Below are positions 16,588-53,790 of a stretch of 64,000 nt of DNA, one piece after another. Each line of letters begins with the position of its first letter. Within the stretch, counting starts at the first letter, position 1. This DNA is from a virus (Duplodnaviria; Caudoviricetes), in IMG/VR virus record IMGVR_UViG_3300043642_000037, positions 32,001 to 96,000 of that record; one strand, 5' to 3'. The translations under genes and the position numbers were made by a program. The notes below the pieces were generated by a model. That model ran no database searches, was not told the origin of the DNA, and saw only the letters and a list, made by a program, of their open reading frames with translations.

Positions 16588-16866
16588 CTAGCCTCCCGCG
16601 GGGTTCATCATGGGCGGGGGAGCCGACGGCGCGCCCGCAAGCTCGGGGGCCACCGTGGACCCCGCGCCGAACGATGGAAGCGGCGGCATGGGGGTCGTGC
16701 CATCCAGCGCCGCGGGCGGTCCGGGTGCGGGAGGCTGCGCGGCTTCGGGCAGGACGTCCTTCCCGCTCTCGACGTCGGCGACGAACTGGTCGACCTGCGT
16801 GGGTGGGCCGAGCGCGAACTTCCGGAACGCGGCCCGGCGGCCCTCGAGATATGCCGACTTGATCAT
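16588..16866 (-). CDS. Small Pro-rich protein with the shared helix motif
   Basis: MIKSAYLEGRRAAFRKFAL. Confidence 0.7.
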   Translation of the reverse strand: MIKSAYLEGRRAAFRKFALGPPTQVDQFVADVESGKDVLPEAAQPPAPGPPAALDGTTPMPPLPSFGAGSTVAPELAGAPSAPPPMMNPAGG

Positions 16867-17276
16867 TGGATGAAGCTCCCCGGCAGCGGCGCGTACGCCA
16901 GTCGCCCGTCGTCGCTGGGCTCGCGCGCGTGCAGCATGGACGCGCCGACGGCGCCGAGACCCATCAACCCGAGGGTTCCCGTTGACGGAATCGCCCGCTT
17001 CGCCGCGCGTCCGATGCTGGATCCCATCGCGAGACCGCGATCCAGCATCGAGGGTCCCGCGGGGGACGCCGCGGGGACGCGCGGGATGGCTGCCGGCGGA
17101 GACGCGGCGGCCGCGGGAGCCGGCATGCTCGACGGTCGCATGCTCGGCGCGGACATCACGCCGGGCCGCGCGATCGGCAGGGGCACGTGCGGGCTGAACC
17201 CGGCCACGCGGATCCCGAAGCGGGTCAGGGCCACCTGGCCTCCCGCGTGAACCGACTGACGAATGGCGCCCGACAC
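16863..17276 (-). CDS. Small protein with the shared helix motif and a hydrophobic segment
   Basis: SVHAGGQVALTRFGIRVA; GTLGLMGLGAVGA. Confidence 0.7.
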   Translation of the reverse strand: MSGAIRQSVHAGGQVALTRFGIRVAGFSPHVPLPIARPGVMSAPSMRPSSMPAPAAAASPPAAIPRVPAASPAGPSMLDRGLAMGSSIGRAAKRAIPSTGTLGLMGLGAVGASMLHAREPSDDGRLAYAPLPGSFIQ

Positions 17277-17277
17277 G

Positions 17278-17646
17278 CTAGCCCACCGCGATGAACACGA
17301 CGGTGGCCGCGCCCGTCGTGGTGATGAGCGCGGCGGTTAGGAAGCCCTGCGCGCTGTTCATCCACAGGAAGTAGCCGGTGCCCGCGGCTAGGGGCCAGGC
17401 GTCCGTGCCGCCGTTGAACTTGGCGGTGCAGGTGCCCGCCATGCACTTCACCATGACGCCCTTGGCGCCGCCCGACGTGAGCGTTCCGAGGTTGACGGTG
17501 TCATCGGTGACCGCGCCGTCGTACTTGCGGATGAAGTCTGCCTTGGCTCCGTACGGAAAATTGACACCCAGGTCGATGGGGGCCGACGGTCCGGCGTCCT
17601 CGAGAGGGGTCGACAGCTTGCCTGCGACGGTGAAGTTCTGCGCCAT
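17278..17646 (-). CDS. Probable structural protein
   Basis: ATG after GGAGG and the CCTATACT motif (17667-17674). Confidence 0.65.
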   Translation of the reverse strand: MAQNFTVAGKLSTPLEDAGPSAPIDLGVNFPYGAKADFIRKYDGAVTDDTVNLGTLTSGGAKGVMVKCMAGTCTAKFNGGTDAWPLAAGTGYFLWMNSAQGFLTAALITTTGAATVVFIAVG

Positions 17647-17689
17647 GGGTCCGGGCCTCCACCACAAGTATAGGGCGAGACCGACGACG

Positions 17690-21284: not shown

Positions 21285-21431
21285 TCACTCCTCGAGCAGG
21301 CGAACGGTCCTTGCGATCGCGGTCATTCGTTGAGCAGCCTCGAGACGGTCGAGGCGCGCCTTGAGGGATAGTAGGCGAACCAGAACCTCGCCAAGCGCGG
21401 GTCGACCCTTGGACCACCCGGGGTCAGTCAT
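21285..21431 (-). CDS. Small 48-aa protein not in the ORF track
   Basis: MTDPGWSKGRPALGEVLVRLLSLKARLDRLEAAQRMTAIARTVRLLEE fills the gap between two genes. Confidence 0.5.
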   Translation of the reverse strand: MTDPGWSKGRPALGEVLVRLLSLKARLDRLEAAQRMTAIARTVRLLEE

Positions 21432-22827
21432 TTCCGACCTTGGTGGACTCGTAGGGGAACCCCTGCGCGACGAGGATGATGAACTTTTGCATCAGCGCCA
21501 GCTGCGTCGCCAGCCCTATGGGGTTGCTCGGCACGAGGGCCCCGATTGCCGTTACCAGGTGGGTCATGAACTCCGCGTGGTCCCGCAGGTACGCGTCGAA
21601 CAGTGGCAGCGGGTGGCGACCGTTCGGCCCGAGCAGCACCTTGCTTCCGTCGATCCCGGCCCTTCCGGAGGCCTTGATCCTGGCGTCGCCCGTGATGTTG
21701 ACGTCCATGCCCCCGCCGATCTTCGCGGTCGCCTTGTCGCCGACGTCGAGGCTGGCGGTCTCGCCGACCTTCGCCGTCAGCTTTCCGGTCACCACGCCGA
21801 CCGCGTCGCCGCCAACGCTCTCCGCGGAGTCCCCGATCGTCGATCGCACGCGATCGGCGCCGGCGATCACCGTGTCGGTGCCGCCCACCTGGGTGGTCCT
21901 GTCCCCGTCGATCGTCGCGATCTTCACCCCGTGAACCGTGACCTGGTCGTCGCCTCCGATGTCCGTCCTGCGGTCCCGGGCCACGTCGTGACGCGTCTCG
22001 CCGACGCCAGCGGCCCCGGACGACACGTCCACGCCGCCGTCGCCGTACAGCTGAACGCGGCCATCCGATCCGGCGTGCAGGCGAAACAGGACGCGGCCCT
22101 TGGGCTCGGCGATGACGAAGTCGAGGATGTCCCCCGTGGACCCGAGGTCGAGCCGGATGGTCCAGTTCTGCTCGTCCATGCCGGTCTCGGTGGCCTGCAC
22201 GGATCCCGCGCGCAGGACGAACGACGTGCGTCCCTGGTCGTTCTGGACGCGGGACACCCCGAAGTCCGATATCGACTCGATTCGGCGGGCGACGTGCTGG
22301 AGCACGCCGGACATGCCGAACGATCGCGTCTGCGCGGTCGGGCTGCCAACCAAGGTCAGTCCGCCGCCCAGCACTGCGACGTGGTTGCCGTGGGCGCCCA
22401 CGTGGGCCCAGTCTCCCTGGCTCATGTCGGTGGGCGCGAGCGGTGGCTTGTAACTGTTCCCACCGGAGGTCGCTTGCGTTGGATCCGCGTCCCCGTATCC
22501 CTCGACGCCGGTGAGCGAGGGTGGCGAGATCGCAGTTTGGGGAGGCCCGACGAAATCGATGCATCCGACGATCACGGGAAACCCGAGGTCCCAGGAGACG
22601 ACGACGGACGTGCCGGTCTCGAGGTGATCGTAGCTCCCCCCCGAAGGCCTCATCTGCGGGACGTCGCGCAGCGGTTGACCGGCGTGAGTCCTGACGGTCG
22701 AGGTGTGGGTAGCGGAGTTGTACTCGACAACCACGCCCAGCTGCCAGCGCATCCCCTCCGGCGCGGTCCTGGAGAGTCCCGCGGCCCCGATGTTCGCGGC
22801 ACCCGGGGTGTGGAGAGGATCGCGCAC
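21424..22827 (-). CDS. Baseplate central spike (gp5/gpV/VgrG-like)
   Basis: OB-fold-like N-terminus; C-terminal IGGD/VGG 8-residue beta-helix repeats. Confidence 0.75.
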   Translation of the reverse strand: MRDPLHTPGAANIGAAGLSRTAPEGMRWQLGVVVEYNSATHTSTVRTHAGQPLRDVPQMRPSGGSYDHLETGTSVVVSWDLGFPVIVGCIDFVGPPQTAISPPSLTGVEGYGDADPTQATSGGNSYKPPLAPTDMSQGDWAHVGAHGNHVAVLGGGLTLVGSPTAQTRSFGMSGVLQHVARRIESISDFGVSRVQNDQGRTSFVLRAGSVQATETGMDEQNWTIRLDLGSTGDILDFVIAEPKGRVLFRLHAGSDGRVQLYGDGGVDVSSGAAGVGETRHDVARDRRTDIGGDDQVTVHGVKIATIDGDRTTQVGGTDTVIAGADRVRSTIGDSAESVGGDAVGVVTGKLTAKVGETASLDVGDKATAKIGGGMDVNITGDARIKASGRAGIDGSKVLLGPNGRHPLPLFDAYLRDHAEFMTHLVTAIGALVPSNPIGLATQLALMQKFIILVAQGFPYESTKVGND

Positions 22828-22841: not shown

Positions 22842-23174
22842 CTAGTCGTCGCTCGGCTTCGACACGTTCATTGGAGGAATCGAGTACATGTCACGTCTTG
22901 CGTCGGGGAATCGCTGCCGGGACCAGTGAAACGAGAGGTAGAAGTTCACGATGACGAACGCGTTGACCGCGATCGTCAGCATGCGCACAGTCTCCCACGC
23001 GCCTTGGCCCATCGCGGTCAGCGCCGTCGTGATGTTTCCGTAGATCAGCGCGGAGATCGTCGCGCAGATCGCGAGGCTGACTGGGTTGCGCCGGCTGTGC
23101 CACCCGCGCAGGAAGCGGATGAGTAGGGGGACCCACGCGAGCGCGAGTGCCGTCGGGACGATGACGTAGACCAT
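22842..23174 (-). CDS. Small multi-pass membrane protein
   Basis: Three hydrophobic helices. Confidence 0.65.
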   Translation of the reverse strand: MVYVIVPTALALAWVPLLIRFLRGWHSRRNPVSLAICATISALIYGNITTALTAMGQGAWETVRMLTIAVNAFVIVNFYLSFHWSRQRFPDARRDMYSIPPMNVSKPSDD

Positions 23175-23184
23175 TGGACCTTCC

Positions 23185-23403
23185 TCACTTTTTCACGACG
23201 CTGGGATCCACCAGGGGAAATGTCCCGGTCGCGTCCTTCCCAAACATTTCCCGGTGTCGATCGAAGGTCAGCTTCGCGAGGTCGTTAATTTGCTGGGTGG
23301 TCTTCGCGAGCTTGATCTTACTCCGTCGGCCACTGCGAAGCTCGGCTCGCACGATCGCCGTCAGCACGACGACGAGCATGAGTGTTGAGATCCAGACCGC
23401 CAT
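23185..23403 (-). CDS. Small single-TM protein
   Basis: GGAGG SD; MAVWISTLMLVVVLTAIV. Confidence 0.6.
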   Translation of the reverse strand: MAVWISTLMLVVVLTAIVRAELRSGRRSKIKLAKTTQQINDLAKLTFDRHREMFGKDATGTFPLVDPSVVKK

Positions 23404-23414
23404 GGTGCCTCCGT

Positions 23415-25084: not shown

Positions 25085-25386
25085 AGGATCCTCGGCGCGC
25101 CGGGCGGAACGCGCGGCAGGCTCGCCTTGGAGAGGTGCTTGACCAGGGCGTCGGCGGGCGTCTGCACGGGGCTGACGACGCGACGAAGCGCGTTGACCGG
25201 GGCCGCGCCGAAGCTCTCGAGCGCTGGCAGCACGCGGGGTGACACGGCGTTGAGCGCGCCGCGCGCGACCGAGCCGCCGGCTGCCGTGCCGAGGACCCCG
25301 AGGATCGTCTCGAGCGTCGAGGCCTCGCGAATGGCGAAGCGTCGAGCAGCCTTGAGGGCGCCATCTTTCACGGCGTCACGCATCAT
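25081..25386 (-). CDS. Small protein with the shared helix motif
   Basis: AVKDGALKAARRFAIREA. Confidence 0.7.
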   Translation of the reverse strand: MMRDAVKDGALKAARRFAIREASTLETILGVLGTAAGGSVARGALNAVSPRVLPALESFGAAPVNALRRVVSPVQTPADALVKHLSKASLPRVPPGAPRIL

Positions 25387-26120
25387 CCCATCGGTCCCTG
25401 GGACTGCAGCTTGTTGCCGAGCGCGCCTCCCGCCATGCTGGATGCGGCGTCGAACGCCATGCCGCCCATCCCACCGCCGATGCGCGGCAGGATCTTGCCG
25501 GCCATGCCGCCGAGCGCGGCGCCGCCGGCGCCCTTGGCGAGGGCTCCCACGCCGGCACGCGCCAGGGCGGGTCCCGCGATCGAGCCGAGCAGGGGTCCGA
25601 TGAAGGCTTCCTTGACGCCGTATCGCGCGGCCGCGGCCCGCGTGCCGCTGTCCCGCGCGGCGCCGAGCTTGTCAGCGATGCTGTCCTTGTGGCCGCTCTT
25701 CTGCGCGCCGTACATCATGCCGCCCAGGCCGCCGACTCCCGCGCCCACGCCGGCACCCAGCTGCGCGCCGAGCCCCGGGTTGTGCGCGAGCGCGCCGAGC
25801 AGCGCGCCCAGGCCTCCGCCGCTCGCCGCGCCGAGCCCGGCACCTCCGACGCCGCCCAGAACCGAGCCGATGGCCGCGCTGCCCCGCTGGCCGTCGTCGG
25901 CACCCATGGCCGCCCCGATGGGCGCGCCGATGCCGGGGAGCATCAGGCCTCCCGCGAGCGCGCCGAGCCCGGCGTGGTTGGCCAGCTTGTGGCCGGTGCT
26001 TCCGCTGACCTCGACGTGGAGCGTCTCACCGGGCTGTCGTCGGGGGCTTCGCGCGAAGCTCTCCTTGGCGGCCTTGATGATGTCCGCGATGAACTGGTCG
26101 GTCGTTGAGTGCAGGGACAC
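25383..26120 (-). CDS. Glycine-zipper protein with an internal shared helix motif
   Basis: Long G/A hydrophobic repeats; ARDSGTRAAAARYGVKEA. Confidence 0.7.
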   Translation of the reverse strand: MSLHSTTDQFIADIIKAAKESFARSPRRQPGETLHVEVSGSTGHKLANHAGLGALAGGLMLPGIGAPIGAAMGADDGQRGSAAIGSVLGGVGGAGLGAASGGGLGALLGALAHNPGLGAQLGAGVGAGVGGLGGMMYGAQKSGHKDSIADKLGAARDSGTRAAAARYGVKEAFIGPLLGSIAGPALARAGVGALAKGAGGAALGGMAGKILPRIGGGMGGMAFDAASSMAGGALGNKLQSQGPMG

Positions 26121-26129: not shown

Positions 26130-28493
26130 TCAGGCGACGAGATGCAGCTCGATGACGTTGAGGGGCTTGGGCAGCCCGATGCCGAGGTGGGTGACCACCC
26201 GATCACCCGACGTGGGGCTGACCCCCAGATCGTTGATCTGGAACGAGGTGAGCGGCGCGCCGATCTTGGCGACCGAGCGGAGCTTGAGGACGTCGCCTCC
26301 GGTGTTCAGGGCCGCCTGCAGGTACGTCAGGGTGTCCTGCGTGACGTTGTACACGCCGAGGAACACTTGGAGGATGTCGACGAAGAACAGCGCGACGAAG
26401 TCGAAGTTCTTGACCACGGAGTACTCGCCGCTCTCGAGCGTCGTCGTGTCCGTGGTCAGCTGGTGAATGGAGAACGGCAGCGAGGTCGGGGTCGACTGCG
26501 CGAACACGAACCACCCGCCGTTGCTGATGTCGGTCAGCTGGCGATCGGTGAAGTACGTGTTGCTGTCGTAGATCTGGCTGACGCCCGCGATGCCGAGATT
26601 GGTGAAGCCCTGCTGGCTGGGCAGGCCGGCCGTCATGCCGCCGACGGCGGACGCCAGGTACCAGCCAGGCTGCTTGCTGCCGCCGGTCACGCCGGCGACG
26701 TCGCACTTGTCCGGCCACACCAGGATCGTGCGCTTGGATCGGAAGGACTGCGACTGGGCCACCAGCTCCAGCACCTGCTGGTCCTTCGAGAGCGTGCGGA
26801 CGACCTGGTAGTTGACGGTGGAGGTCGAGACCACGGCCCCGCCCGCGCGCTTGACTCCGTGCGGAAGCTCGTTGATGACCGTCGACGCGTCCGGACCGCC
26901 GTTGACGATCTGCAGGCGGTTCTCGCTGAGGACGGCCGCCACGATGACGGTCGTGAATGTGCTCGTGGCGGTGATGGTGGCGTTGGGGTCGACCGGGATG
27001 CGAACGAGGTCGCCGGCGGCCACGCCGCTGGACACGAAGGTGCCGCTGTTGTCCTTCAGGATGAGGAAGAGATCATCGCCTGCGGAGGTGACGACGCCCG
27101 TCAAGGCCGCGGACGCGATGCGCGGCGTCGTCCCGTCGGACTGGGTGATCGAGGCGGTCACGTTGCACGTGCCGGCCCCGGCGAACGGGGTCGAGACGTC
27201 GACCTCGAGGGTGGTCGCGTCGGTCACGGACGCCACCGGGTAGGTCCCCAGCGCGATCGTCCCCGCCGCGCTCGTGACCGTCACGATGAGCTTGTCGCCG
27301 GGAATGACGCCGCCGGTGACCATGCTAGCGATTCCGGTCAGCACGATCTTGGTCAGCGTCGCCGGCGCCGACGAGGTCAGCTGGGTGGACTGGCCCGTGG
27401 CCGACGGCTGGATCAAGGTCTTGGTGATCGGGAGCGTCCCGTTGCCCAGCACGACACGGAAGCGCTGCGGCCGGCCCGTGTTCTCGTCGGGCGTCGCGAG
27501 GCCGAGATTGTCGGCGTTCCACATCGCGAACACGGACACGTTGGTCGTCAGCGGCACGATCGCGTAGACGTCCGGCCGCGCGGTGATGTGGTCGCGCGCC
27601 TGCGTGTGGCCGGGCAGGTCGTCGGTCAGGACGCCGATGAACTGCACGACCGTCGTCGTGTTCTGGAGCGCGACGAACGCGGCCGCGCCGAGCGGGTTGC
27701 GCGCGTCCAGCCGACCGATCTTGGTCTTGATCTGATCGGTCGACTCGACCGTGTCGAGGTCGACCAGGTCCTGTCGCAGCGTCCGGTACTGCACGAAGAC
27801 CTTGGCGTACGACACGGTCTTCGAGCCCTGTCCGACGACGGGGACCGTCACCGAGCCGTTGATCTTGACCGCGTTGCCGCTGATCGTGAAGAACGACGGA
27901 TCGATCTTGACGTCGTTGATCTGCCGCTCGATCCGATACGTCTGGCCGCTGCCCGGGGTGAACCCGGAGGACGGCAGATCCGCGGTGAACCGCAGGCTGG
28001 TGTCGCTGTCGACCGCCAGCACCGTGCGCGCGATGACGTTGGTCGTCCCGTCCTTGACGATCACGCGGTCGCCCGACTTGACCTGTCCGACGCCGGCGGT
28101 GTTCCACGTGGTGCCGGTCGCGGTGAAGGTGTTCGGCGTCGAGGCCGAGGTCACCCCGGTTCCCGCGGTGTTCACGATCGCGCGGGCCTCGTCGAAGAAC
28201 ACGACGACGCTCGCCGCGTCGAGCAGGGCGCCCGGCTTGTTGCTGGGCGGCTCGGCTACCGTGATCACGGCGGAGCCGACCGGCGTCGCCGTGGAGGGGT
28301 TGCCCTCCAGCGCGCCGTAGTCGCTGACGCGAATGTCCGCCTTGTCGGCGTTGGTCGTCGTCCCCGGTTGGAAGTAATCCTGAATCCAGTACGCCGGGCC
28401 GACGACCAGGCAGTTGAGATCCGGGGTCGACGGAGTCACCGTCGGCGTCGCGATCTCTTGGAAGACGAGAACGACCGGTCGAATCAGCGCCAT
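26130..28493 (-). CDS. Contractile tail sheath protein
   Basis: 787 aa; C-terminal LTDISNGGWFVF...EYSVVKNFDFV...LPKPLNVIELHL. Confidence 0.8.
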   Translation of the reverse strand: MALIRPVVLVFQEIATPTVTPSTPDLNCLVVGPAYWIQDYFQPGTTTNADKADIRVSDYGALEGNPSTATPVGSAVITVAEPPSNKPGALLDAASVVVFFDEARAIVNTAGTGVTSASTPNTFTATGTTWNTAGVGQVKSGDRVIVKDGTTNVIARTVLAVDSDTSLRFTADLPSSGFTPGSGQTYRIERQINDVKIDPSFFTISGNAVKINGSVTVPVVGQGSKTVSYAKVFVQYRTLRQDLVDLDTVESTDQIKTKIGRLDARNPLGAAAFVALQNTTTVVQFIGVLTDDLPGHTQARDHITARPDVYAIVPLTTNVSVFAMWNADNLGLATPDENTGRPQRFRVVLGNGTLPITKTLIQPSATGQSTQLTSSAPATLTKIVLTGIASMVTGGVIPGDKLIVTVTSAAGTIALGTYPVASVTDATTLEVDVSTPFAGAGTCNVTASITQSDGTTPRIASAALTGVVTSAGDDLFLILKDNSGTFVSSGVAAGDLVRIPVDPNATITATSTFTTVIVAAVLSENRLQIVNGGPDASTVINELPHGVKRAGGAVVSTSTVNYQVVRTLSKDQQVLELVAQSQSFRSKRTILVWPDKCDVAGVTGGSKQPGWYLASAVGGMTAGLPSQQGFTNLGIAGVSQIYDSNTYFTDRQLTDISNGGWFVFAQSTPTSLPFSIHQLTTDTTTLESGEYSVVKNFDFVALFFVDILQVFLGVYNVTQDTLTYLQAALNTGGDVLKLRSVAKIGAPLTSFQINDLGVSPTSGDRVVTHLGIGLPKPLNVIELHLVA

Positions 28494-31173: not shown

Positions 31174-31347
31174 CTAGCGCTTGACGAGACCCGCGATCAG
31201 GCCGTCGAGGCCGTGAGCCTGCGGCGTCTGGCTCGGCAGCAATCCGATCTCCTGGGCCTCCTTGTAGACGTCCTCGAGGGACGCGTAGCCTGCTTCCTTG
31301 ATCGCCTTCTGGACGCCGATATCACGCGCGGTTTTGATGTGGCTCAT
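31174..31347 (-). CDS. 57-aa protein not in the ORF track, motif variant
   Basis: MSHIKTARDIGVQKAIKEAGYASLEDVYKEAQEIGLL...; AGGAG SD and GCTACAAT upstream. Confidence 0.7.
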   Translation of the reverse strand: MSHIKTARDIGVQKAIKEAGYASLEDVYKEAQEIGLLPSQTPQAHGLDGLIAGLVKR

Positions 31348-36585: not shown

Positions 36586-37530
36586 TCACAGGGGGAAGTC
36601 GATGCGCTGGAAGGCCAGGGTGTTGCCGATGCCGATGCCGGGAGCGGCGTAGCTCCAGAACTCGATCAGATCCGCCTCCTGTTTGATGTACAGCGTCGCG
36701 TCCTGGAGCAGGAAGAACACGCCGAGGTAGTTCTGCGGCGCGAAGATGTACGCGCTGCGGCGGCCGATCGTCGGATCCGTCGACGGGTTGTCGATGATCT
36801 CGTTCTTGATCGAAGAAACCACTGGGATGCCCCAGAGCTTCTCCTCTGCCTCGATGCCGAGGTCGTAGTGCCGCGACGCCACGTCGTTGCCGACCGAGGT
36901 GGCGGGCAGGTCGATGGCCTCGTAGTACAGCTCCTTGGACATCAGCATCTTGCCGATCGGCTGCTTGCGACGGACGAGCGCCTGGAATCCCTTCTTGAAG
37001 GCGGACGAGCCGAAGCTCGCGGCCTGGGTGCGCTGGGTGGCCAGGTTGAGCGCGATCAGGCCGTTGATCGTGTCCGTGAACTTCTGGTCTTCCTGGTCCG
37101 ACATGTCCTTGACGGAGTTGTCGGACAGGATCTTCCTGATGTCGTTCTGGTACGTCATCAGGTTCCACTTCCGGGTCTTGAAGTGCTGGCTCTCCGTCTT
37201 GCCGAAGTAGACGGCGAAGCGCTTGCCCCGGAAGAACGTCGAGCGGCCGCTGCCGTTGAAGGGAACGAACGTGGCGATGGAGTCGGGCTCCTTCTCCACG
37301 ATCTTCTTCGGCATGTCGCTGTTCTCGTCGCGATCCAGCTCGTCGTCCTGGAGCAGGATCGGCTCGATGATCTCGCGGGCGAAGCTCTCCTGTCGGAGCC
37401 GCTGGCGGACGAACGCGCTGCCCTCGGCCTCCGCCTCCTTGGTGCGGCCCTCCTCGAGCTTGCGAACGAAGTTGCTGTTGATGTACTGGGCCGAAACCTG
37501 CTGGGTCTCGGTCTTGTAGGCTGCCGACAT
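36586..37530 (-). CDS. Major capsid protein (HK97-fold, probable)
   Basis: 314 aa; AGGAG SD; very strong codon bias; follows protease, scaffold-like and decoration genes. Confidence 0.75.
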   Translation of the reverse strand: MSAAYKTETQQVSAQYINSNFVRKLEEGRTKEAEAEGSAFVRQRLRQESFAREIIEPILLQDDELDRDENSDMPKKIVEKEPDSIATFVPFNGSGRSTFFRGKRFAVYFGKTESQHFKTRKWNLMTYQNDIRKILSDNSVKDMSDQEDQKFTDTINGLIALNLATQRTQAASFGSSAFKKGFQALVRRKQPIGKMLMSKELYYEAIDLPATSVGNDVASRHYDLGIEAEEKLWGIPVVSSIKNEIIDNPSTDPTIGRRSAYIFAPQNYLGVFFLLQDATLYIKQEADLIEFWSYAAPGIGIGNTLAFQRIDFPL

Positions 37531-39005: not shown

Positions 39006-39007
39006 GC

Positions 39008-39607
39008 TCAGCGCGCGGCCTCGATGAGTCGAGCCGTGTCCGCGAAGCCGGCGACGAAGCTGTCGCTGGCCGTCTTGTGGATCCACTGGACGGTGCCGTT
39101 GTGGCCGTACAGCCACGCGGCCTCGGCGAGCTTGGTGAGGTCGATCTTGGTCTGCTCGTAGCCCAGGTCGTGGGCGTCGCGGACGATGTCCGGGTTCGCC
39201 GAGGCGAACTTCTCGAAGTCGTCGACGCCACCCGAGACCGCCGCGGTCTTCACGGCTGGCAGGGTTGTCGCGGTCCTCTGCGCGGCCTCGTCGTACTGGG
39301 CGAGGCGGGCCATGAATCCGTCGCACACCGCGGCGCCGTACAGGTTCGCCTCCTTGATGGTCGCGGCGTGCTCGTCCGCGACGACGCTCGCCGCGAGCTT
39401 GGTGAGGTCGTCGAGCGGCGAGGACTGCCCCGCCGTCTTGGTCGACGCCTCGACCTCGGCGGTCGCTTCCTTGAGGGCCTGCCGAAGCCCGGCCGCCGCG
39501 GCGTCGCTGGGCGACCCCCCGCTCGAAATGGCACGAGGAGACGGAGCCGCGGCGGCCGTCTTCTCGGCCTCGGGCTCCAGTAGCTGAAACGCTTGCGTGA
39601 GCATCAT
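39008..39607 (-). CDS. Scaffold/core-like protein, very K-x-A rich
   Basis: KTA, KEA, KTA, KLA, KEA, KTA, KFA, KLA, KTA in about 200 aa; CCTATCAT upstream. Confidence 0.7.
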   Translation of the reverse strand: MMLTQAFQLLEPEAEKTAAAAPSPRAISSGGSPSDAAAAGLRQALKEATAEVEASTKTAGQSSPLDDLTKLAASVVADEHAATIKEANLYGAAVCDGFMARLAQYDEAAQRTATTLPAVKTAAVSGGVDDFEKFASANPDIVRDAHDLGYEQTKIDLTKLAEAAWLYGHNGTVQWIHKTASDSFVAGFADTARLIEAAR

Positions 39608-39659: not shown

Positions 39660-42527
39660 TCAGCCGATGACGACCGACCCCAGGAAGTCCACCACGTGCT
39701 CGACGTCGAGCACCAGGCCGACTATCGGATCCACGACGGATCCGATCTTCGCACGAGAAATGTCGAGCGCGCCCGACGAGGGCGATCTGCACTCGACCAT
39801 GCTGATCAGCGCGGCCATCTTGGGCGCGGTCTCGGTGACGTCCGGCACGTCCACGCCCTCGGCGGTGCCCCGCGTCGATCCGGGGCGAGGAGACAGCGCG
39901 GCCTGCCCCAGCGCGCCGATGCCGACCGCGAGCGGGGCCCGCGCCTTGCGGAGCCACGGATAGGCCGTCAGCATCTTGTAGCTTCCCAGCATGAGCGCCG
40001 TGCCTCCCAGCACCTTGCGCATGTGGGCGCGCGTGACCGCGTCCTGCGCCTCGAGAGCCGCCCCCCTGGTGGTGACCTCGTTCCCCGCGTGAAGGAGGTC
40101 CGTGGTCGGCGCGGCGTCGGGGCGCAGACCCGCCCCCTCGGGCACGAGGCGCCGGTACAGCATGTCGCCGGCGTAGGCGCGCTTCTCGCGGATCCTGGCG
40201 AGGGCGGACGCCAGGGCGGCGTCGACGTTGGACGCCTCGCCGAGCTTGCACTCGTCGAGCACGTGGTCGAGCAGCGACGGCGACTCGGAGAAAAGCTCCA
40301 GCGCCGCGTCAGCTGCGGCCGCGAGGCGGACCAGAACGTCGTGGGCGACCCTGGTCGGCCGGCCGGTCAGCTGGCTGATGGCCGCCTCGGCGAACTCCGC
40401 GTCCTTGAGGACCACGCCGGCTCGATCCGCGGTCGTGACGACGCCGCGGAGACCCACGCCGGGTGACAGCGCCGCGGCCTGCACGACGCGAGACGGCAAC
40501 CCCGGTGATCCCGACAGCCGGTCGCCCGCGTAGTCGCGAAACCGAACCGCGAGGTCCCTCTCGCCACGCGAAACGGTCGAGATCGCGATCGGCTCGCCGC
40601 GGATCACCTTGCTCATCTCCGACAGCTTTCGCGCCGCGGCCGTCTTCCGCGCCGCCGCGTCCGCCTCGACGCCGAGATCCGCCGCCAGGCGACCCCCGGC
40701 GTCCGCGACCTTCTTGAGCGTGTAGCCGATGCGGTCGGCCGGACGAAACACGCGGCTGATGTCGAAGAAGTCGGAGTCGGGGTTGTAGACGAAGTTCTTC
40801 GTGCCGTCGGGGTTGACCTGGTTCATCGCCAGCGCATGCTTGCAGTACTCGGCGCGGGACGGGGCCTTGTTGCCACACCGGGAGCACACGTCGTATTTGA
40901 TCTTGCAATTGTGAACAGCGAGGCCCTCGATGAGATAGCTCTCGTCTTCCTCAACTTCGAGATTGAACACTTGCGTCTCTGCGTACTGCGTTTCGATTTC
41001 CCGTATCGGAACGCAAACATAGTCTCCAACGATCTTTCTACTTTCCTTGCGGGCCAAGACCTCCCTTGCCTCGACCTTTGCGCAGGTAGTTTTCAGCTTA
41101 TATGCCCACTGTACACCGATGTGGATGACCCATTCAAACGTGTCTTCCGTGCTGAATCCGCTGCCAGCTTTGTGTGTCAGCTGATTGCAGGACGCGAGGA
41201 TTCCAAGCCGAAGAAGCATGTGACGCCACTGAGACGCTAAGTCACTCGAAGCGGTCGATACCTTCAACCAGCCGTCCCTACCGCAACCATCTCCGTTCGC
41301 GTACGCACCAAACAGCTCGCGCTGCATTTCAGGCGGCCAGTGCATTACGGCCTTCGATAATTTCTTTTGGCGGGCTGATACGCCTCCGTGCGTGAGGCAA
41401 AGCGCGGCTAGCTTGTCATCGCAAATCATGATTCCGCGCGCTGATTCACAATTCGCACGAACATACGTCCATGGTGCGTTTCGCGTTCCGAACTCCGCGC
41501 AGAGTTGACAAATTTCCGTGTGGATTGCGTCAGACTGATTCGTGGTCAGTTCGATGCCGTAAGGCGATCCTTCTCGCCAAATGATGTGACCTTCCGCCAC
41601 GTAATAGCCGAGCAGTCGAGCGAACGTACGGGACAGCTCAGGGGTTGTCGCTTCCGTTCGATCAATCGGAGCCAGCAGGAGTTGCGATTCCAGGCATGAT
41701 GCGTGCGTCCATTCACCTTCGACGCGAGCGTCTGGCCGCCAGCGTACGTTGCCTTTGGCTCGTTCTTTTTCTTTTACGGAGCCCCACGCGGTCGTCCAAA
41801 ATGGATGTTCGTCCGTTGCGTAGATGGTCGCGTGCGCTTCGCCGCGGATGGCGTGGATGTTTCCACGGTAAGGACGTTTGTGAGTGCTTGAGACGCGACG
41901 CGCTCTGCCTCGATGTGTAATGACCTCGTCGCCTTCGATGATCTCTTCGATGGCTTTTTGCGTCCCGTCAGCCAGGGTGACTCGGGCACCTGCCAAGAAG
42001 CAGCCCATCGACACTGCCGGGAACTCGCCCTGCTCGACGCGGTCCACCCACTCCGCGTCCTTTTCGTTGTCGATGACCGTCAGCAGCTCCACGCGGTGCA
42101 TGCGCGGGTTCCAGAACGCGCGTTTGACGTAGCCCGACGCCTTGGCAGGATCCTTGTTCTGGTGGTGCTTGAACGTGTGCGCCGGGTTGGTCTCGAACGT
42201 CCGATAGGTCTGGGTCAGCTCCTGGCCCGGGGCGACCCACCAGCGCTCGCCGCGAGCCGTGGCCTCCTTGCCGCGGGCGGGGACCGGATACTCCGAGAAG
42301 CCGTCACCGTTGCGGTTGGGCCCGTAGGTCTCCTCCGCGCCCATGGCGAGGAGCAGCAGGTGGGTCTTTCCGGGCTCCGGGCTGACGTTCTTGATGTAGT
42401 CGAGCGCGTCGGACGCGTGCTTGGTCACCCTGCCGACGTCGAACCGCCCTCCTCGCAGGGGCAGCACGAGCTGGAGGGTCAGCTCTCCCGTCGGAAACGT
42501 GTCCGCGAACTCGATGATCTTCTTCAC
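39660..42527 (-). CDS. Prohead maturation protease (intein-containing)
   Basis: NRNGDGF, HHQNKD, AVSMG|C, FFDISRVFRPAD fit an HK97/T4-like prohead serine protease. Confidence 0.8.
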   Translation of the reverse strand: MKKIIEFADTFPTGELTLQLVLPLRGGRFDVGRVTKHASDALDYIKNVSPEPGKTHLLLLAMGAEETYGPNRNGDGFSEYPVPARGKEATARGERWWVAPGQELTQTYRTFETNPAHTFKHHQNKDPAKASGYVKRAFWNPRMHRVELLTVIDNEKDAEWVDRVEQGEFPAVSMGCFLAGARVTLADGTQKAIEEIIEGDEVITHRGRARRVSSTHKRPYRGNIHAIRGEAHATIYATDEHPFWTTAWGSVKEKERAKGNVRWRPDARVEGEWTHASCLESQLLLAPIDRTEATTPELSRTFARLLGYYVAEGHIIWREGSPYGIELTTNQSDAIHTEICQLCAEFGTRNAPWTYVRANCESARGIMICDDKLAALCLTHGGVSARQKKLSKAVMHWPPEMQRELFGAYANGDGCGRDGWLKVSTASSDLASQWRHMLLRLGILASCNQLTHKAGSGFSTEDTFEWVIHIGVQWAYKLKTTCAKVEAREVLARKESRKIVGDYVCVPIREIETQYAETQVFNLEVEEDESYLIEGLAVHNCKIKYDVCSRCGNKAPSRAEYCKHALAMNQVNPDGTKNFVYNPDSDFFDISRVFRPADRIGYTLKKVADAGGRLAADLGVEADAAARKTAAARKLSEMSKVIRGEPIAISTVSRGERDLAVRFRDYAGDRLSGSPGLPSRVVQAAALSPGVGLRGVVTTADRAGVVLKDAEFAEAAISQLTGRPTRVAHDVLVRLAAAADAALELFSESPSLLDHVLDECKLGEASNVDAALASALARIREKRAYAGDMLYRRLVPEGAGLRPDAAPTTDLLHAGNEVTTRGAALEAQDAVTRAHMRKVLGGTALMLGSYKMLTAYPWLRKARAPLAVGIGALGQAALSPRPGSTRGTAEGVDVPDVTETAPKMAALISMVECRSPSSGALDISRAKIGSVVDPIVGLVLDVEHVVDFLGSVVIG
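40908..42002 (-). mobile_element. Intein with LAGLIDADG homing endonuclease (365 aa)
   Basis: Starts CFLAGARVTLADG; TDEHPF block B; LLGYYVAEG and LFGAYANGDG; ends LAVHN before C; AT-richer than flanks. Confidence 0.93.
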
Positions 42528-43066: not shown

Positions 43067-43069
43067 GCG

Positions 43070-43342: not shown

Positions 43343-43344
43343 CG

Positions 43345-48536: not shown

Positions 48537-48546
48537 TGGTTCCTTG

Positions 48547-48747
48547 CTACGTGGCGGGAAAGCTCACAACTTTTGGGATGTTCGCATCGGGAATGGCTCT
48601 TGCCTTCTCGACCTCGACGACCTTCTTGGCGTGCTCATGTCCCAGCGTGTGCGTTGCGATCTCGGCGCTCGGCCTCCGGTGATGGTCGTGTGCGAGATGA
48701 TGTTCGATCTGCCGGAGGCCCTCGTGACGGACGTGTCGCGGCAGCAC
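48547..48747 (-). CDS. Small His-rich protein
   Basis: 66-aa ORF filling the gap between two genes. Confidence 0.5.
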   Translation of the reverse strand: MLPRHVRHEGLRQIEHHLAHDHHRRPSAEIATHTLGHEHAKKVVEVEKARAIPDANIPKVVSFPAT

Positions 48748-48750
48748 GGA

Positions 48751-50088
48751 CTACCTCGTGCCGGCTCGCATGGCGTGCTCGATGCGCCGGACGTGGTCGC
48801 GCATCGCCGCCTCCTTGCCCTTCTCGTCGTCGCCGTCCTTGTCGTCCTTGTCGTCTTTCTTCGCGAAGGGGTTCTCACCCTTCTTGTCGTCCTTGTCGTC
48901 GTCCTTCTTCTCGCCCTTGTCCTCCTCCTTGCGCATGAAGAACGGCAGACCGCTCTCCTCGGCGGCCTTGCTCTGGTTGTTCTTGCGGCCGTCGTAGGCG
49001 CCCGGGCGCGAGTGGGTCGCGTCGGAGCTGTGCTGCGCGTACCCGTCGGACCGCGAGCCCGGCGGAACCGCGGCGGGCGCCGCCGCCGCCGTGCGCTCCT
49101 GGACGGAGGTCTGCAGGCCCGTGAGGTAGGCGGCCTTCTCGGCGACCTGCATTCCCATGCACGCGCGGACGTGAGCCACCTTCTCGTCCTCGGACAGGGA
49201 GGCGGGAATGTAGGGGAAGCACTCGGCCGCCGTCTTCTTGAAGACGGCGATCCACGGGTCCTCGGCCGCGGCCTTCGACGAGTGCTGAGTGACCGAGTTC
49301 GATCCGCTCGGCGACTCGCTGGGACCGTTGGGCTGCGGGGTCTCGCGACCGATGATCGCCGGGCCCTTGGCCTGGCTCATCAGTTCGCCGAGTCCGCCCT
49401 GCATGGGGAGCACGGCGTATCCGGATGGACGCTGCGACATGTCCATCTTGCCCTCCGCGGTGGTCGGCTCCTTGTTGCCCTTGTCCCCACCGAGGATGGT
49501 GGTGCCCTCCGCGATCTTCCGCATCATGTCGGCGAGCGACGCGGTCCTGGACTGCTCGGTCACCGAGTTCTCTCCCGAGGGAGACTCGTGCGGGCGGTTC
49601 GGCTGGTCCTGCTCCTTGCCGACCGCCCCGGCGCGGGTGTCGACCTCGGTCTTACCGAGGCTGTTCTCGGCGTAGCCGGGCGGGCGCTGCGCCGCGTCCA
49701 TCTTGGTCTCGCCCTGACCCGACTCGGCCTGCGTGTTGCCCTTGTCGCCGCCCTCGATCGTGCTGCCCTCCGCGCGCTTCTCGGCTTCCTCCATCAGGTG
49801 CGTGGCGTTGGCCTGCGCGATCTTCTCGAGGTCGGCCTGGTTCTCGACGCGGTTGAACGAGGCGGCCTTGAAGCCGGGCCGCTGCTGGCGGATCCTGTTC
49901 GACGCGTCGATGACCGTGTTCGCGATCTTCGCCGTCGCGTCCCCGGGGCTCGCGGGATCGAAGTCCAGCTGGTCCGCGACGTAGTCCGCGACCTTGATCG
50001 CGTCGCCGCCGTCCTCGAACTGGGCGCGCCCGCCCTGGATCACTGCCAGCGCGACACCGCGGGCGTATGCTTGCTTGAACATGGTCAT
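48751..50088 (-). CDS. Scaffold/inner-core-like protein with an internal duplication
   Basis: AGGAG SD; CCTATCAT motif; more than ten K-x-A sites; two GGDKGN...ESPSG.NSVT repeats. Confidence 0.75.
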   Translation of the reverse strand: MTMFKQAYARGVALAVIQGGRAQFEDGGDAIKVADYVADQLDFDPASPGDATAKIANTVIDASNRIRQQRPGFKAASFNRVENQADLEKIAQANATHLMEEAEKRAEGSTIEGGDKGNTQAESGQGETKMDAAQRPPGYAENSLGKTEVDTRAGAVGKEQDQPNRPHESPSGENSVTEQSRTASLADMMRKIAEGTTILGGDKGNKEPTTAEGKMDMSQRPSGYAVLPMQGGLGELMSQAKGPAIIGRETPQPNGPSESPSGSNSVTQHSSKAAAEDPWIAVFKKTAAECFPYIPASLSEDEKVAHVRACMGMQVAEKAAYLTGLQTSVQERTAAAAPAAVPPGSRSDGYAQHSSDATHSRPGAYDGRKNNQSKAAEESGLPFFMRKEEDKGEKKDDDKDDKKGENPFAKKDDKDDKDGDDEKGKEAAMRDHVRRIEHAMRAGTR

Positions 50089-50144: not shown

Positions 50145-50558
50145 TTATCCCAAGACCTTGGCCTTGGCCGCGCCCGCCGCCATCGGTGGAGACGGCGGGG
50201 CCGGAGGCTTCATCGAGGGCGGAGACATCGCCCCACCCATCGACTGGCCGTTGAGGGTCGGATTGTACCCGGCGGCGCCCGCCTGCATGTTGGACATCTT
50301 GTACCGAGCAAGAGCCGCAGCTTTGCCAGCTTCAAATGCGTTGTTCATGGGTTTGAAATTGTCCTCGAAGTATTTCTTGGCGACCAACCACTGGTCTGTG
50401 TGGTCTTTTGGATTTCGAGCGATCATGTCTCCGGACTTCGGAGAGCCGTTTTTTCGATCTGCGGCGCTGATGCTGACGTCTACAAGTCGTTCTTCTGGTT
50501 TATAGGGACGCAGCTCCGCTACGTCTGTTCGACGATACTTTTCAAATTCGTCTGTCAC
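50145..50558 (-). CDS. AT-richer phage domain fused to a helix-motif peptide
   Basis: KYRRTDVAELRPY...GDMIARNPKDHTDQWLVAKKYF then MNNAFEAGKAAALARYKMS. Confidence 0.7.
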   Translation of the reverse strand: MTDEFEKYRRTDVAELRPYKPEERLVDVSISAADRKNGSPKSGDMIARNPKDHTDQWLVAKKYFEDNFKPMNNAFEAGKAAALARYKMSNMQAGAAGYNPTLNGQSMGGAMSPPSMKPPAPPSPPMAAGAAKAKVLG

Positions 50559-51130
50559 GGAAGGTCCTGTCTGGGAGTGGTCCCCAACACGTGGTCCAGC
50601 CCGCGCCCGACGACGTGACCGAGGCCCCTGCCGACCCCGAGACCGATTGGGGTTCCAATCATGCCGCCGGCGGTGCCGCCGTACATCATGCCGGCAAGGC
50701 CGCCCACGCCGCCGAGGAGACGCGACATTCGGCCCTCCGAGGCGTCCTGGCGCATCATGCTCGGCAGCGCCGCGGCGGTCAGCAGGGTGCCCGCGCGTCC
50801 GGCGGCCTGCATGAATGGCCGGCCGGGCATCGAGGGCCACAGGACGTTGCGCCAGTGGAGAGAGCCGCCGGGTGCGAACGTCCTGGCGCCCTCGACGAAG
50901 GCGTTGGGTCCCTGCCCGAAGGCGACGAGCTTGGCGGTGCCGGCCGCGGAGTCGACGAGGCCCTGGCCCAGGTAGGCCAGCTTGGCGGCGCGAACCCCCT
51001 CGGTGAGGGCCTGCACGATTGTCGACAGCTCCGTCGAAGGTTTTGCATGTTGGTGCGGCCGATGTCCGTGTCTTGCGAAGTGTTCGCGCATGGTGTCGAC
51101 GGAGTACCCTGGGTCGTTCGGACCGAACAC
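50555..51130 (-). CDS. Glycine-zipper protein with a weak helix motif
   Basis: ALTEGVRAAKLAY; GGVGGLAGMMYGGTAGGMIG. Confidence 0.65.
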   Translation of the reverse strand: MFGPNDPGYSVDTMREHFARHGHRPHQHAKPSTELSTIVQALTEGVRAAKLAYLGQGLVDSAAGTAKLVAFGQGPNAFVEGARTFAPGGSLHWRNVLWPSMPGRPFMQAAGRAGTLLTAAALPSMMRQDASEGRMSRLLGGVGGLAGMMYGGTAGGMIGTPIGLGVGRGLGHVVGRGLDHVLGTTPRQDLP

Positions 51131-52908
51131 TAGTACCTTCCTTCCGGGCCCTGCCCGAACTCGGTTCCGGCGGCGTACGCCGGAACGGGCGAGTAGCCGT
51201 GAACGTCGGCGTGGTCGCCGCGGTGGGCGCCGGCCAGCAGGCTCTCCTTCAGGTACCGGTGACCAAGACGCGCCATCCAGTCTGGGTTCAGCAACGGGGT
51301 TCTCGACGCGGGCCGCATGAGCGGGGCCGCCATCGGAGCGTTGTCCGCCACGTTCACCTCGTGAACCCCGCGACGCGCGAGCACGCTTGCGACGTCGGGC
51401 GTCACCCGGGTTCCGGCGGTGAAGTGGAACGCGTCCTGCGCGAGCGTCTCGCCCGCTGCCTCGGCCAGGCCGACACGCCTGTGGGACGCGGCGAGCGCGG
51501 CGCGGAACCTGTTGTAGTCGATCACGTCGCCCTTCATGAAGGCGTCGTCCGGCCCCGGATCGATGATCTGGACGTGGGACAGCACGCTTCTCGCGAGCGT
51601 CTCGAGGTGGCGCTTGTCGACGTCCGCGCCGGCGCGCCGGTACACGTCGTGAAGAGCGTCGACCAGGTAGCGCCTGCCCTCGCCGAGCCCCTTGTGACGG
51701 ACGATCTCGTCGGGACGAGGCACGCCGTCCGACAGCGTGTCGCCGGCGAACAACGGCTGGCCTACGGCCACCGTCACCCGCTGGTCCGGCGGGACGTAGT
51801 GGCGCGACCCCTCGACGGTGACGTAGGCGCCTCCCTGTGGGGCGGGCTCGACGATCCCGACCTTGCCGTCCCTGTCCGCGAGCACGGCCTTGTGGAGGAA
51901 TGAGGTCGGTATCTCGAGGAGCTGGCGGACCCCCTTTATCCCCTCGAGCTGCTTCTTGTCGGTCGCGGCCGCAGCGACGCGGCCGCCGTGCTTGGCGTTC
52001 AGGCTGAACTGGGTCAACGGCTCACTGAGCGCCTGCGCCGCGCGCATGCCGACGTTGGTGCCCAGCACGTGCGGGTGTCCCGAGGGGTCGAGACCCTGGC
52101 AGCGCTGGCAGATGCCGTGCGGCGCCTCGCAGGTCATCGGCGATCGGACTGTGACGGGGTCCCCCTTCGCCGCGATTGACGATGCGAGCCCAGGAGTCAC
52201 CAGACGACCGTCGGTCAGGTAGCGATCGATCAGGTGCGGATCGGCCGCGGCCATCTCGATCCCGTTCCGCGTGCCGCAGTCGAGGGTCGTGATGAGCTTG
52301 TCGCCCATATTGTTGACGAGGATCTTCGCCAGGTCCCCCGGCTCGACGACCGAGATGTTCGACCTCACCGCGTTGACTCGAGCCTCGCCGCCCGCGACCC
52401 AGGCGTCGGCGGGCGTCAGGCCCTCGGAGAAGCTCTTCTTGATCAACCAGGGCACCGTTCGGTCCCTGGAGTCCCTGGCCAGGACCGGAGAGCCGACCGC
52501 GCGCATGAGCTGGGCCGCGTTGCCGCGTCCGCCCGACCTCACCATCTCCCCCATCGCCCCCTTGTCGCGCTTGGCGAGCGAGAGCATCGCGTCCTGCGCC
52601 GCGAACAAGGCCTTCTCCCTGTCCGCGTGCGTCCTCGCCGCGTGGAAGGCGTCAACGTGCGGCGCCAGCATGGCGTCCCGCTCCGGGTGCGGCGCGATGT
52701 CGTCGAGCCCGACCGAGATGCCCTCCAGCGTCGCGACCTCGTCGCCGAGCCGCTTGAGCCTGGTGACGACCTCGGGATACGCGGAGGGATCGGACTTCGC
52801 CAGGCGAACCAGGCTGTCGTTGAGCACGCCCTTGGTCAGGGCCTGGTCGTCGTGTCGCCAGCCCTTCGGCAGCACCGCGTCGACGAGATGTTGTCCCAGC
52901 GTTCGCAT
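51130..52908 (-). CDS. Phage RNA polymerase, beta' C-terminal part
   Basis: SGGRG, SFSEGL, DCGT, VRSPMTC..GICQRC, AAQALSEPLTQFSLNAKHGG (bridge helix, Zn site, trigger loop). Confidence 0.9.
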   Translation of the reverse strand: MRTLGQHLVDAVLPKGWRHDDQALTKGVLNDSLVRLAKSDPSAYPEVVTRLKRLGDEVATLEGISVGLDDIAPHPERDAMLAPHVDAFHAARTHADREKALFAAQDAMLSLAKRDKGAMGEMVRSGGRGNAAQLMRAVGSPVLARDSRDRTVPWLIKKSFSEGLTPADAWVAGGEARVNAVRSNISVVEPGDLAKILVNNMGDKLITTLDCGTRNGIEMAAADPHLIDRYLTDGRLVTPGLASSIAAKGDPVTVRSPMTCEAPHGICQRCQGLDPSGHPHVLGTNVGMRAAQALSEPLTQFSLNAKHGGRVAAAATDKKQLEGIKGVRQLLEIPTSFLHKAVLADRDGKVGIVEPAPQGGAYVTVEGSRHYVPPDQRVTVAVGQPLFAGDTLSDGVPRPDEIVRHKGLGEGRRYLVDALHDVYRRAGADVDKRHLETLARSVLSHVQIIDPGPDDAFMKGDVIDYNRFRAALAASHRRVGLAEAAGETLAQDAFHFTAGTRVTPDVASVLARRGVHEVNVADNAPMAAPLMRPASRTPLLNPDWMARLGHRYLKESLLAGAHRGDHADVHGYSPVPAYAAGTEFGQGPEGRY

Positions 52909-52909
52909 G

Positions 52910-53323
52910 TCACATCGACGGCGGGTAGCCCGGGGGCGATCCATAGCCCTGCTGGGCCATCATGGCTCGACGTCGCGCCTGCTCATCCTGCTCCTGGTTG
53001 CGTCGGTGCCACATGTACAACCCGCCGGCGGCGAGCGTCGGCGCGAGCTTGCCCGCGTTTCCGATGGCCTGCTGTCGGTGAGTCGCGCGCGCGAGGTCCA
53101 TGCTCTGCGGTGGCACGGCCCCTGTGATCAGGGTGGGGTTCATCTGTCCGCCCAGGCCGCCTCGCAGGTTGCGAAACAGGTCCTTGGCCGCGCCGGCCTG
53201 ACCCGCGCCGAACGTCTTCAGCTTGTCGAGGATGCCGGCCGGCGCGACGTCGGCCATCTTGAACCTCGCCAGGGCGTGTCGGACGCCCGCATGCGCAAAC
53301 GGGGTGACGTGTGTCGTCGACAT
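52910..53323 (-). CDS. Small protein with the shared helix motif
   Basis: FAHAGVRHALARFKMA; LAPTLAAGGLYMW. Confidence 0.7.
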   Translation of the reverse strand: MSTTHVTPFAHAGVRHALARFKMADVAPAGILDKLKTFGAGQAGAAKDLFRNLRGGLGGQMNPTLITGAVPPQSMDLARATHRQQAIGNAGKLAPTLAAGGLYMWHRRNQEQDEQARRRAMMAQQGYGSPPGYPPSM

Positions 53324-53790
53324 CAGACGCCTCCAAACGCGGATGGGCCGACGCCCGATCGGCCGCCGGCGTCGCCCGCGGCCGTGCTGCTGGGCGGACC
53401 CCAGTTGGTCGATCGATCGAGCGGGTTCTTGGCCGCGACGGGCGCCCCCGGCTGCGGCGGCTCGTCGAGCGCCTGGAGCATTCGAGCCAGGTCCTCCGAC
53501 GATCGTCGATCGCCGTACTCGTTCGCCTTCTTGGCGTGGCCCTTCGCCGCCACCGTCTTGCCCGCCGCGTCGAACCCGTGAAAGGTCCGATCCGGGATCT
53601 TGAGCCGAAGCTCCTCCCCCGCGCGCTTGAGGCCGAAGCGCTCCAGCGCGGCGATCGCGCCGGACGCTCTCGCGTGCTTGACGTGCTCGGGCAACGTCAC
53701 GTCCTTGGGCGTGTGGTCCGCGAACTCCCGTGCCACCTCCGGGTGGTTGGCCCAGAGGTACTTTCGTTGCGCGTCGGATCGGAAGGGCAC
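53323..53790 (-). CDS. Small protein with an MPFRS.AQR N-terminal domain and the helix motif
   Basis: MPFRSDAQRKYLWANHPEVA...KHARASGAIAALERFGLKRA; CCTATACT at 53800-53807. Confidence 0.7.
   Translation of the reverse strand: MPFRSDAQRKYLWANHPEVAREFADHTPKDVTLPEHVKHARASGAIAALERFGLKRAGEELRLKIPDRTFHGFDAAGKTVAAKGHAKKANEYGDRRSSEDLARMLQALDEPPQPGAPVAAKNPLDRSTNWGPPSSTAAGDAGGRSGVGPSAFGGV

Follow-up and report, generated by a model that had tools for sequence, protein, structure and literature searches.

Ten small proteins, or eleven with one whose copy has decayed, that are otherwise unrelated and are encoded along the virion operon of an uncultured soil phage of the class Caudoviricetes carry one and the same 17-residue helical tag, and we lean, by a modest measure, towards reading this tag as a capsid-targeting address that loads a varied cargo into the forming head and is then cut off. 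The stretch that was analysed (the window, 64,000 nucleotides) comprises bases 32001-96000 of a single virus record, IMGVR_UViG_3300043642_000037, of 156,126 bp and 66% GC. Coordinates are those of the window, from ~16.5 kb to 60.4 kb of which there runs a single long minus-strand virion operon; genes were called with a codon-usage model trained on the phage genome itself. The tag reads [A]-[Y]-x2-G-x3-A-[L]-x-[RK]-[FY]-[KG]-[LIVM] and is usually preceded by M-x-L; positions in it are counted here from the motif Gly, which places the aromatic residue near its end at +8. A first-pass annotation, made from the letters of the window, had proposed a motif of this kind in about 13 proteins. All ten of the peptides that it cited as full copies are present, on the minus strand and in frames with coding-type codon usage; its positions mark the low-coordinate ends of open reading frames (ORFs) and not the motifs. 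The shared motif stands; the count resolves into ten strong copies, one decayed copy and two related sequences, rather than 13 equals:

16807..16857, minus strand: tag 1, N-terminal, ending K-F-A; gene 16588-16866, 92 amino acids (aa), with a Pro-rich payload
17208..17258, minus strand: tag 2, N-terminal; gene 16863-17276, 137 aa, GTG start, Pro-rich with a C-terminal Gly-zipper
25327..25377, minus strand: tag 3, N-terminal; gene 25081-25386, 101 aa, between sheath and tube
25611..25661, minus strand: tag 4, internal, with its Gly at residue 159, followed by a conserved K170-E-A; Gly-zipper gene 25383-26120, 245 aa
30747..30797, minus strand: tag 5, N-terminal, with a conserved K20-L-A; gene 30090-30812, 240 aa
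31100..31150, minus strand: tag 6, N-terminal; gene 30809-31162, 117 aa
31583..31633, minus strand: tag 7, N-terminal; gene 31373-31645, 90 aa, K19 invariant in 107 homologues
50292..50342, minus strand: tag 8, N-terminal on the assumption of a start at 50348, which agrees with the orthologues; gene 50145-50348, 67 aa
53252..53302, minus strand: tag 9, N-terminal, with K22-M-A; gene 52910-53323, 137 aa, between the RNA polymerase genes
53626..53676, minus strand: tag 10, internal, with its Gly at residue 44, flanked by conserved K38-H-A and K55-R-A; gene 53323-53790, 155 aa
50555..51016, minus strand: eleventh tagged family, the tag decayed here and complete in orthologues of other genomes
48751..50088, minus strand: protein of 445 aa encoded with strong codon bias; its N-terminus carries a conserved half-tag, MFK-x-AY-x-RG-x3-AL, and ten K-x-A sites are conserved in it
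31174..31347, minus strand: conserved 57-aa protein with a variant helix, TAH-x-YGV-x-KAL, unaffected by the Phe/Leu switch described below

As had been anticipated, the tag is usually N-terminal: in eight of the ten proteins the motif Gly lies at residue 8-13 and the tag starts within residues 3-8 (for genes 16863 and 50145 this requires a corrected start codon), the two internal tags being those of genes 25383 and 53323. The payloads are as unlike one another as had been claimed, with no shared Pfam or PHROG family; searches of both databases with all the tagged proteins gave no family match at all, and literature searches found no description of the motif. Three further copies had been listed as weaker. 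One, 50555, is a true family member in decay; the other two, 48751 and 31174, are half-tags (AY-x2-G-x3-AL without the aromatic residue), conserved and distinct, that obtain no score from the hidden Markov model (HMM) described next. The product of 48751-50088 is a candidate core or internal protein.

The motif is real and far beyond chance. A 19-column HMM, trained partly on the ten copies themselves, was run over every six-frame ORF of the whole genome; it returns the ten copies at 16.6-23.9 bits, the next best match scoring 9.1. Matches are confined to the virion module and the minus strand, and the other five frames have none. The core pattern G-x3-A-h-x-[RKT]-[FYH]-[GKA]-h matches the called proteome 11 times, where 2000 residue shuffles give 0.11, and the strict 15-residue pattern does so six times against 0.006. 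An HMM built from 79 tags of other genomes only places 8/10 copies above all noise; the copies in 25081 and 16863 score within the noise (the latter, tag 2, at a weak 5.5 bits, its orthologues bearing a full tag), and both rest on orthology. Between copies the tag DNA is only 47-54% identical, and the conserved Gly, Ala, Leu and Arg are encoded by varying synonymous codons. The trivial explanation, a coincidence of Ala/Gly/Arg-rich, high-GC coding or a nucleotide signal at gene starts, draws what plausibility it has from the base composition of the genome and from the abundance of Ala, Gly and Arg in its proteins. It is refuted by the six-frame scan, the shuffle counts (a 100-fold excess) and the codon variation, the motif moreover being conserved across relatives of 58-68% GC, and its chance of being right is negligible: because synonymous codons vary and the tag DNA can be as little as 47% identical, conservation must be at the level of protein. 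Two lookalikes were discarded along the way. A tag-like segment at residues 184-200 of the 44172-45038 protein is unconserved in relatives and due to chance, and a relaxed AY-x2-G pattern is too unspecific to be of use (21 observed, 6.8 expected).

In the AlphaFold model of the 90-aa protein 31373-31645, which was built with 107 homologues, the tag forms an isolated helix at residues 3-17 (predicted local distance difference test score, pLDDT, 81-89), and the remainder of the chain is modelled with low confidence. The hydrophobic moment of the tags is low (0.09-0.36).

Concerted substitution and the shared partner

Relatives of this phage were collected as loci around homologues of the sheath, the polymerase and the 45693-48536 protein in IMG/VR and metagenomes; G1, a complete relative of 184,915 bp, was taken whole. 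Tags are found at the same orthologous genes in ~25 metagenomic lineages, down to ~57% sheath identity and 58% GC, and one tagged family alone accounts for 191 clusters in a large protein collection. The tagged gene 25081-25386 (minus strand) has no orthologue in G1; the set of tagged cargo genes therefore varies among genomes.

The residue at +8 changes throughout a genome at once. It is Leu in 9/9 tags of G1 (codons CTC eight times and CTG once; the phage studied here uses TTC, TAC and CAC), and Leu likewise occupies +8 in every tag detected at loci L077 (4/4), L078 (4/4), L069 (3/3), L079 (3/3), L083 (3/3) and L038 (2/2). The tags of ~25 other genomes have only Phe, Tyr or His at this position and never Leu; in the 31373 family, ~12 of the 120 members listed are of the Leu type. 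At other positions, tags within a genome are dissimilar, and each resembles its own orthologues. This resemblance, together with the low identity of the tag DNA, implies parallel substitution in separate genes and excludes gene conversion. On the sheath tree the Leu type needs at least two changes. A second lineage-wide shift is seen in the phage's own clade, most of whose tags have lost the Tyr at -3 (the residue is aromatic in 3/10, against ~80% elsewhere). From the concerted changes at +8 and -3 together, we are therefore confident that the tags share a common partner. The earlier proposal of a portable tag with one docking partner is borne out to this extent, by the whole-genome switch from Phe to Leu and by the divergence of the tag DNA; its receptor is for now a candidate.

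That candidate came from a search for alignment columns that separate Leu-type from Phe-type genomes. Such columns are densest in the protein encoded at 39008-39607 (L68M, V173M, I176V and A186E). Its AlphaFold model consists of long helices (pLDDT 88-96 for residues 139-198), which would suit a scaffolding protein, and a Foldseek search with the model retrieved coiled coils only. Among 113 homologues, V173/I176 is found in 92 and M173/V176 in 10. When tags and this protein were paired in 27 genomes, the tags were of the Leu type in 4/4 genomes with M173 and of the Phe/Tyr type in 23/23 with V173; Tyr(-3) in the tag of the 31373 family accompanied W169 in 16/18 and other residues at 169 in 0/9 (exact p ~1e-5, calculated by hand and without phylogenetic correction). 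Blind predictions of tag type from the state of residue 173 came true at two loci: L083 (M173) has 3/3 Leu tags and L084 (V173/V176) has 5/5 Phe tags. The helix that bears residues 169, 173 and 176, all on one of its faces, is itself tag-like (AY-x2-G, residues 164-180).

The same search found no column associated with tag type in the sheath, the tube or families 24497, 28546 and 32118, and none, at invariant columns, in the capsid protein or families 29248 and 31642; family 29248 does have one column that is associated with tag type. Column association thus fails to support any of these proteins as the co-varying partner. The shared partner probably resides in the prohead core, and the 39008-39607 protein is the lead candidate, a placement in which we have moderate confidence. 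More tentatively, and with the balance of our own judgement against it, the tags and the helix of this protein may constitute a matched address code whose specificity has been switched in nature: Phe(+8) paired with V173/I176 in most lineages, Leu(+8) with M173/V176 in ~10%, and a further Tyr(-3)/W169 shift in the phage's own clade. If that were so, the loading of a dozen proteins, possibly RNA polymerase adaptors among them, into a phage head would be naturally orthogonal and sequence-programmable.

K-x-A sites and a proposed route into the head

Conserved residue pairs (at least 85% in family alignments, spacings 1-4, all residue pairs) set the head proteins apart. In the products of the head operon (36586-50088) the most over-represented pair is K+2A, with 36 occurrences against 6.6 expected; K+1A occurs 4 times, K+3A 11, K+4A 9 and A+2K 12. 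Tail proteins have one K+2A against 0.6 expected. Conserved K-x-[AS] sites number 6 in the 38065-38412 protein and 8-10 in the 39008-39607 protein, and there are 6-10 also in 45693-48536, in 48751-50088 and in the protease. The capsid protein has a single conserved K-x-A, K31-E-A, near its N-terminus, and the K-E-A is kept in the corresponding place in the distantly related Salmonella phage Arash. Family alignments of the sheath, tube, hub and neck proteins contain no conserved K-x-A; tagged proteins encoded among the tail genes have 1-3 each. The K/R-x-A/S site that had been noticed next to the motif is a regular feature: in 78/112 tag instances (70%) the helix ends in a K-x-[AS] whose Lys stands at +7, +9 or +11. 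This is the distribution that would be expected of a maturation-protease site, and it would link the tagged proteins to the head wherever they are encoded. The K-x-A triplet is accordingly put forward as the candidate specificity of the prohead protease. The T4 prohead protease, which is of the Glu-specific gp21 type, cuts at L/I-x-E, and the site type proposed here, K-x-A/S, is unlike it.

The mechanism that we envisage is the following. The free-standing tag helix would dock its carrier on to one shared partner inside the assembling prohead, most likely a helical scaffold or core, for which the C-terminal helix of the 39008-39607 protein is the best candidate. In this manner eleven or more accessory proteins, unrelated to one another, would be packaged together, among them disordered and Gly-zipper proteins and the small proteins encoded beside the virion RNA polymerase. 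The prohead protease (39660-42527) would recognize the K-x-A/S triplet with which the helix ends and, after assembly, would free the payload from its tag, just as it would trim the capsid protein at K31 and fragment the core proteins. That the tag is removed at K-x-A seems probable, a judgement of moderate to low confidence. The idea of a tag that loads its carrier into the prohead and is then cut off was part of the first-pass annotation. The head-type K-x-A sites, the co-varying scaffold-like protein and the K-x-[AS] that ends 78 tags all speak for it; the destination and the cleavage we infer.

Several observations sit uneasily with this mechanism. A number of the tagged genes lie within the tail part of the operon, and the tag does not exceed the payload in sequence identity when orthologues are compared. 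Arash, the sole cultured relative with a virion proteome, has neither the tag (by HMM) nor the tagged genes. Locus L081, a short contig of 2.5 kb, is mixed, with one Leu and one Phe tag in neighbouring genes; no other mixed case was seen, and recombination or an intermediate state may explain it. In a tree of genes 28546 and 29248 (FastTree, without support values), which disagrees in this with the sheath tree, all the Leu genomes form one clade, and because of this the Leu switch and the scaffold changes may together represent one historical episode; the co-variation of the 39008-39607 protein with tag type is uncorrected for phylogeny. In a simple 1:1 pairing of helices, at most one of the co-variations at residues 169 and 173 could reflect a direct contact. 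Finally, the receptor assignment is not unique, because other head proteins also bear Leu-clade substitutions; families 48751 (A309M and A319Y), 38065 and 44172 may be considered as weaker candidates.

Of the other ways to account for the tag, the likeliest, though we think it unlikely, is that the helix serves co-assembly and is never removed: the tagged proteins, the 48751 product and the 39008 protein would pack by way of their G-x3-A faces into a lasting hetero-oligomeric internal body or core, with K-x-A as a packing motif. AY-x2-G helices do occur in two abundant or helical head proteins (at the N-terminus of 48751 and at residues 164-180 of 39008), the 39008 helix of Leu genomes is altered at its own +5 and +8 (V173M and I176V) as though it were one more tag, and mutual packing fits the concerted change as well as a separate receptor does. 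Yet the K+2A excess reaches proteins and positions that lack a tag-like helix (the capsid N-terminus, the protease and 45693-48536), which is the pattern of a protease site, and the chance rate of the relaxed AY-x2-G pattern is, as already mentioned, high.

The location of five tagged genes next to sheath, tube and hub genes invites a different thought, that the tag is a signal for loading into the tail tube or on to the hub of the baseplate, with Gly-zipper payloads, which are suited to membrane insertion, delivered first into the host envelope. This is improbable: four or five tagged genes are in the head operon, among portal, RNA polymerase and protease; the tagged proteins have the K-x-A that sheath and tube proteins lack in conserved form; and the co-varying candidate is a head-operon protein, with no column of the sheath, the tube or the 28546 family tied to tag type (the 29248 family, to be fair to the argument, has its one). 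Hardly any more weight, and if anything slightly less, can be given to a function after ejection, in which the tag would be an effector helix that binds a host target or a membrane in the cell and plays no part in assembly. A shared host target would constrain all tags in like fashion, but a hydrophobic moment as low as that of the tags is not typical of a membrane-binding amphipathic helix, the switch tracks a phage protein, and assembly propeptides typically sit, as most of the tags do, at the N-terminus with a protease-like site after them. The capsid-targeting address remains the account that we favour, and it is the one that is compared below with known systems.

Known peptide-addressed systems

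How a tailed phage chooses the proteins that it packs along with its DNA is understood in very few cases, of which the capsid-targeting sequence (CTS) of T4 is the textbook one. The T4 CTS is carried by the internal proteins IPI-III and by Alt (Mullaney & Black 1996, as summarised in PMC7411985). The CTS is, like the tag, a short (10-20 aa) N-terminal peptide common to several proteins that otherwise differ. Its presumed target is the prohead core, and it ends at a prohead protease site and is removed, features whose counterparts are proposed for the tag (PMC7411985). The two peptides have no sequence similarity and are not homologous, and the tagged proteins match no PHROG or Pfam family; the tag would resemble the CTS by analogy of mechanism. 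The tag has at least eleven carriers, the CTS four; two of the tags are internal, and the genes are distributed across head and tail blocks. The CTS has been tested by experiment, whereas the tag is known from sequence and models.

In the giant phages SPN3US and phiKZ, N-terminal propeptides of 110-130 residues on ejection and head proteins have been proposed to target the prohead (PMC7411985). These phages also have, as here, a virion RNA polymerase, and many of their head-internal proteins are processed at one short motif, A-x-E, as is proposed here for K-x-A; their propeptides are long and have no common short helix, unlike the tag.

Encapsulin cargo-loading peptides are C-terminal and extended and bind the portal-less HK97-fold shell directly, and the encapsulation peptides of microcompartments are clearly amphipathic helices of ~18 residues with a linker; neither kind is removed by a protease. 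Both have in common with the tag, as it is understood here, that one short peptide or helix, with a flexible linker, brings diverse cargo to a shell interior or core. The encapsulin class does not fit, the tags being N-terminal or internal helices and the phage having portal, sheath and tube genes. Set against the microcompartment peptides, the tag has the helix and the low-confidence, possibly flexible region after it, with a hydrophobic moment that does not exceed 0.36. The packaging signals of extracellular contractile injection systems (Photorhabdus PVC, for example) comprise ~50 disordered residues and direct loading into the tube lumen with a dedicated AAA+ ATPase. Like the tag they are N-terminal and common to varied payloads of a contractile machine; the tube lumen is their destination, and the evidence here points to the head.

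Compared with the T4 case, the system described here has more carriers, a defined helix and a candidate cleavage triplet, and its natural variation names candidate contact residues on the tag and on the candidate receptor. If our interpretation is correct, it would provide a second, unrelated example of peptide-addressed capsid cargo and would account for the many small orphan genes strewn across the virion operons of a widespread clade of soil phages. The K-x-A signature would then define a new prohead-protease specificity, and the tag and its receptor would make a compact pair for packing foreign proteins into phage capsids.

The virion operon and its distant relatives

The landmarks of the operon, other than the tagged genes, are:

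21424-22752: gp5-like hub
26130..28493, minus strand: tail sheath; its Atlas structure matches tail-sheath clusters (TM 0.83-0.84 by target)
36586..37530, minus strand: major capsid protein, 37% identical to Arash gp226 (E 1e-69)
39008..39607, minus strand: scaffold-like all-helical protein of 199 aa, directly downstream of the protease gene; the candidate receptor
39660..42527, minus strand: prohead-protease-like gene with a LAGLIDADG intein
53811-58187 and 51130-52908: two-chain RNA polymerase
58557-60353: portal, 30% identical to the Arash portal

The nearest cultured relatives, Salmonella phage Arash and Vibrio phages D69/D148/D181, are distant ones. Searches of a phage collection with the RNA polymerase, the portal and the 45693 family brought no further cultured relative to light, and searches of PDB sequences with the sheath, capsid and portal gave no match. 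Arash and the Vibrio phages keep the same order of genes: portal, (fused) RNA polymerase, 45693-48536 homologue, protease, capsid, neck, sheath and tube. The sheath and tube genes are adjacent in Arash and the tagged genes are missing there, and so the latter have the look of accessory genes inserted into a conserved virion operon. Mass spectrometry of Arash virions places the two polymerase chains among the most abundant proteins, with the polymerase encoded next to the portal in first place, in a list of 116 proteins that may include contaminants (PMC10585845). At locus L076 (Arash 126-175 kb), nine extra small genes lie between the polymerase chains, several of them on the other strand.

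The intein of the protease-like gene (39660-42527, minus strand) is of the Hint/LAGLIDADG type and occupies approximately residues 176-540. The orthologue in G1 is intein-less and 581 aa long, and in another relative the protein is 945 aa long and contains Hint domains; an intein-less orthologue matches phrog_18299 at 2.6e-8.

A few other features of the operon and its surroundings may be mentioned. The 844-aa ORF at 14052-16586 (minus strand) lies in a stretch of lower GC (61.5% against ~68%) and was missed by the codon model; it may be of recent acquisition or evolve rapidly, as a gene for a fibre or receptor-binding protein might. Between the tube and the gp5-like hub, 22842-23720 (minus strand) encodes three small membrane-type proteins, which are found also at loci L077 and L078. 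An orthologue of one of them has a weak match to YvrJ (PF12841), and these families are heavily changed in the phage's own clade. At 32-50% of the columns that are invariant elsewhere, the small helical head proteins 38409, 38554, 38730 and 43070 (within 38409-39005 and 43070-43342, minus strand) depart from every relative, the comparable figure for the RNA polymerase being 2-4%; the head core is fast-evolving in this lineage.

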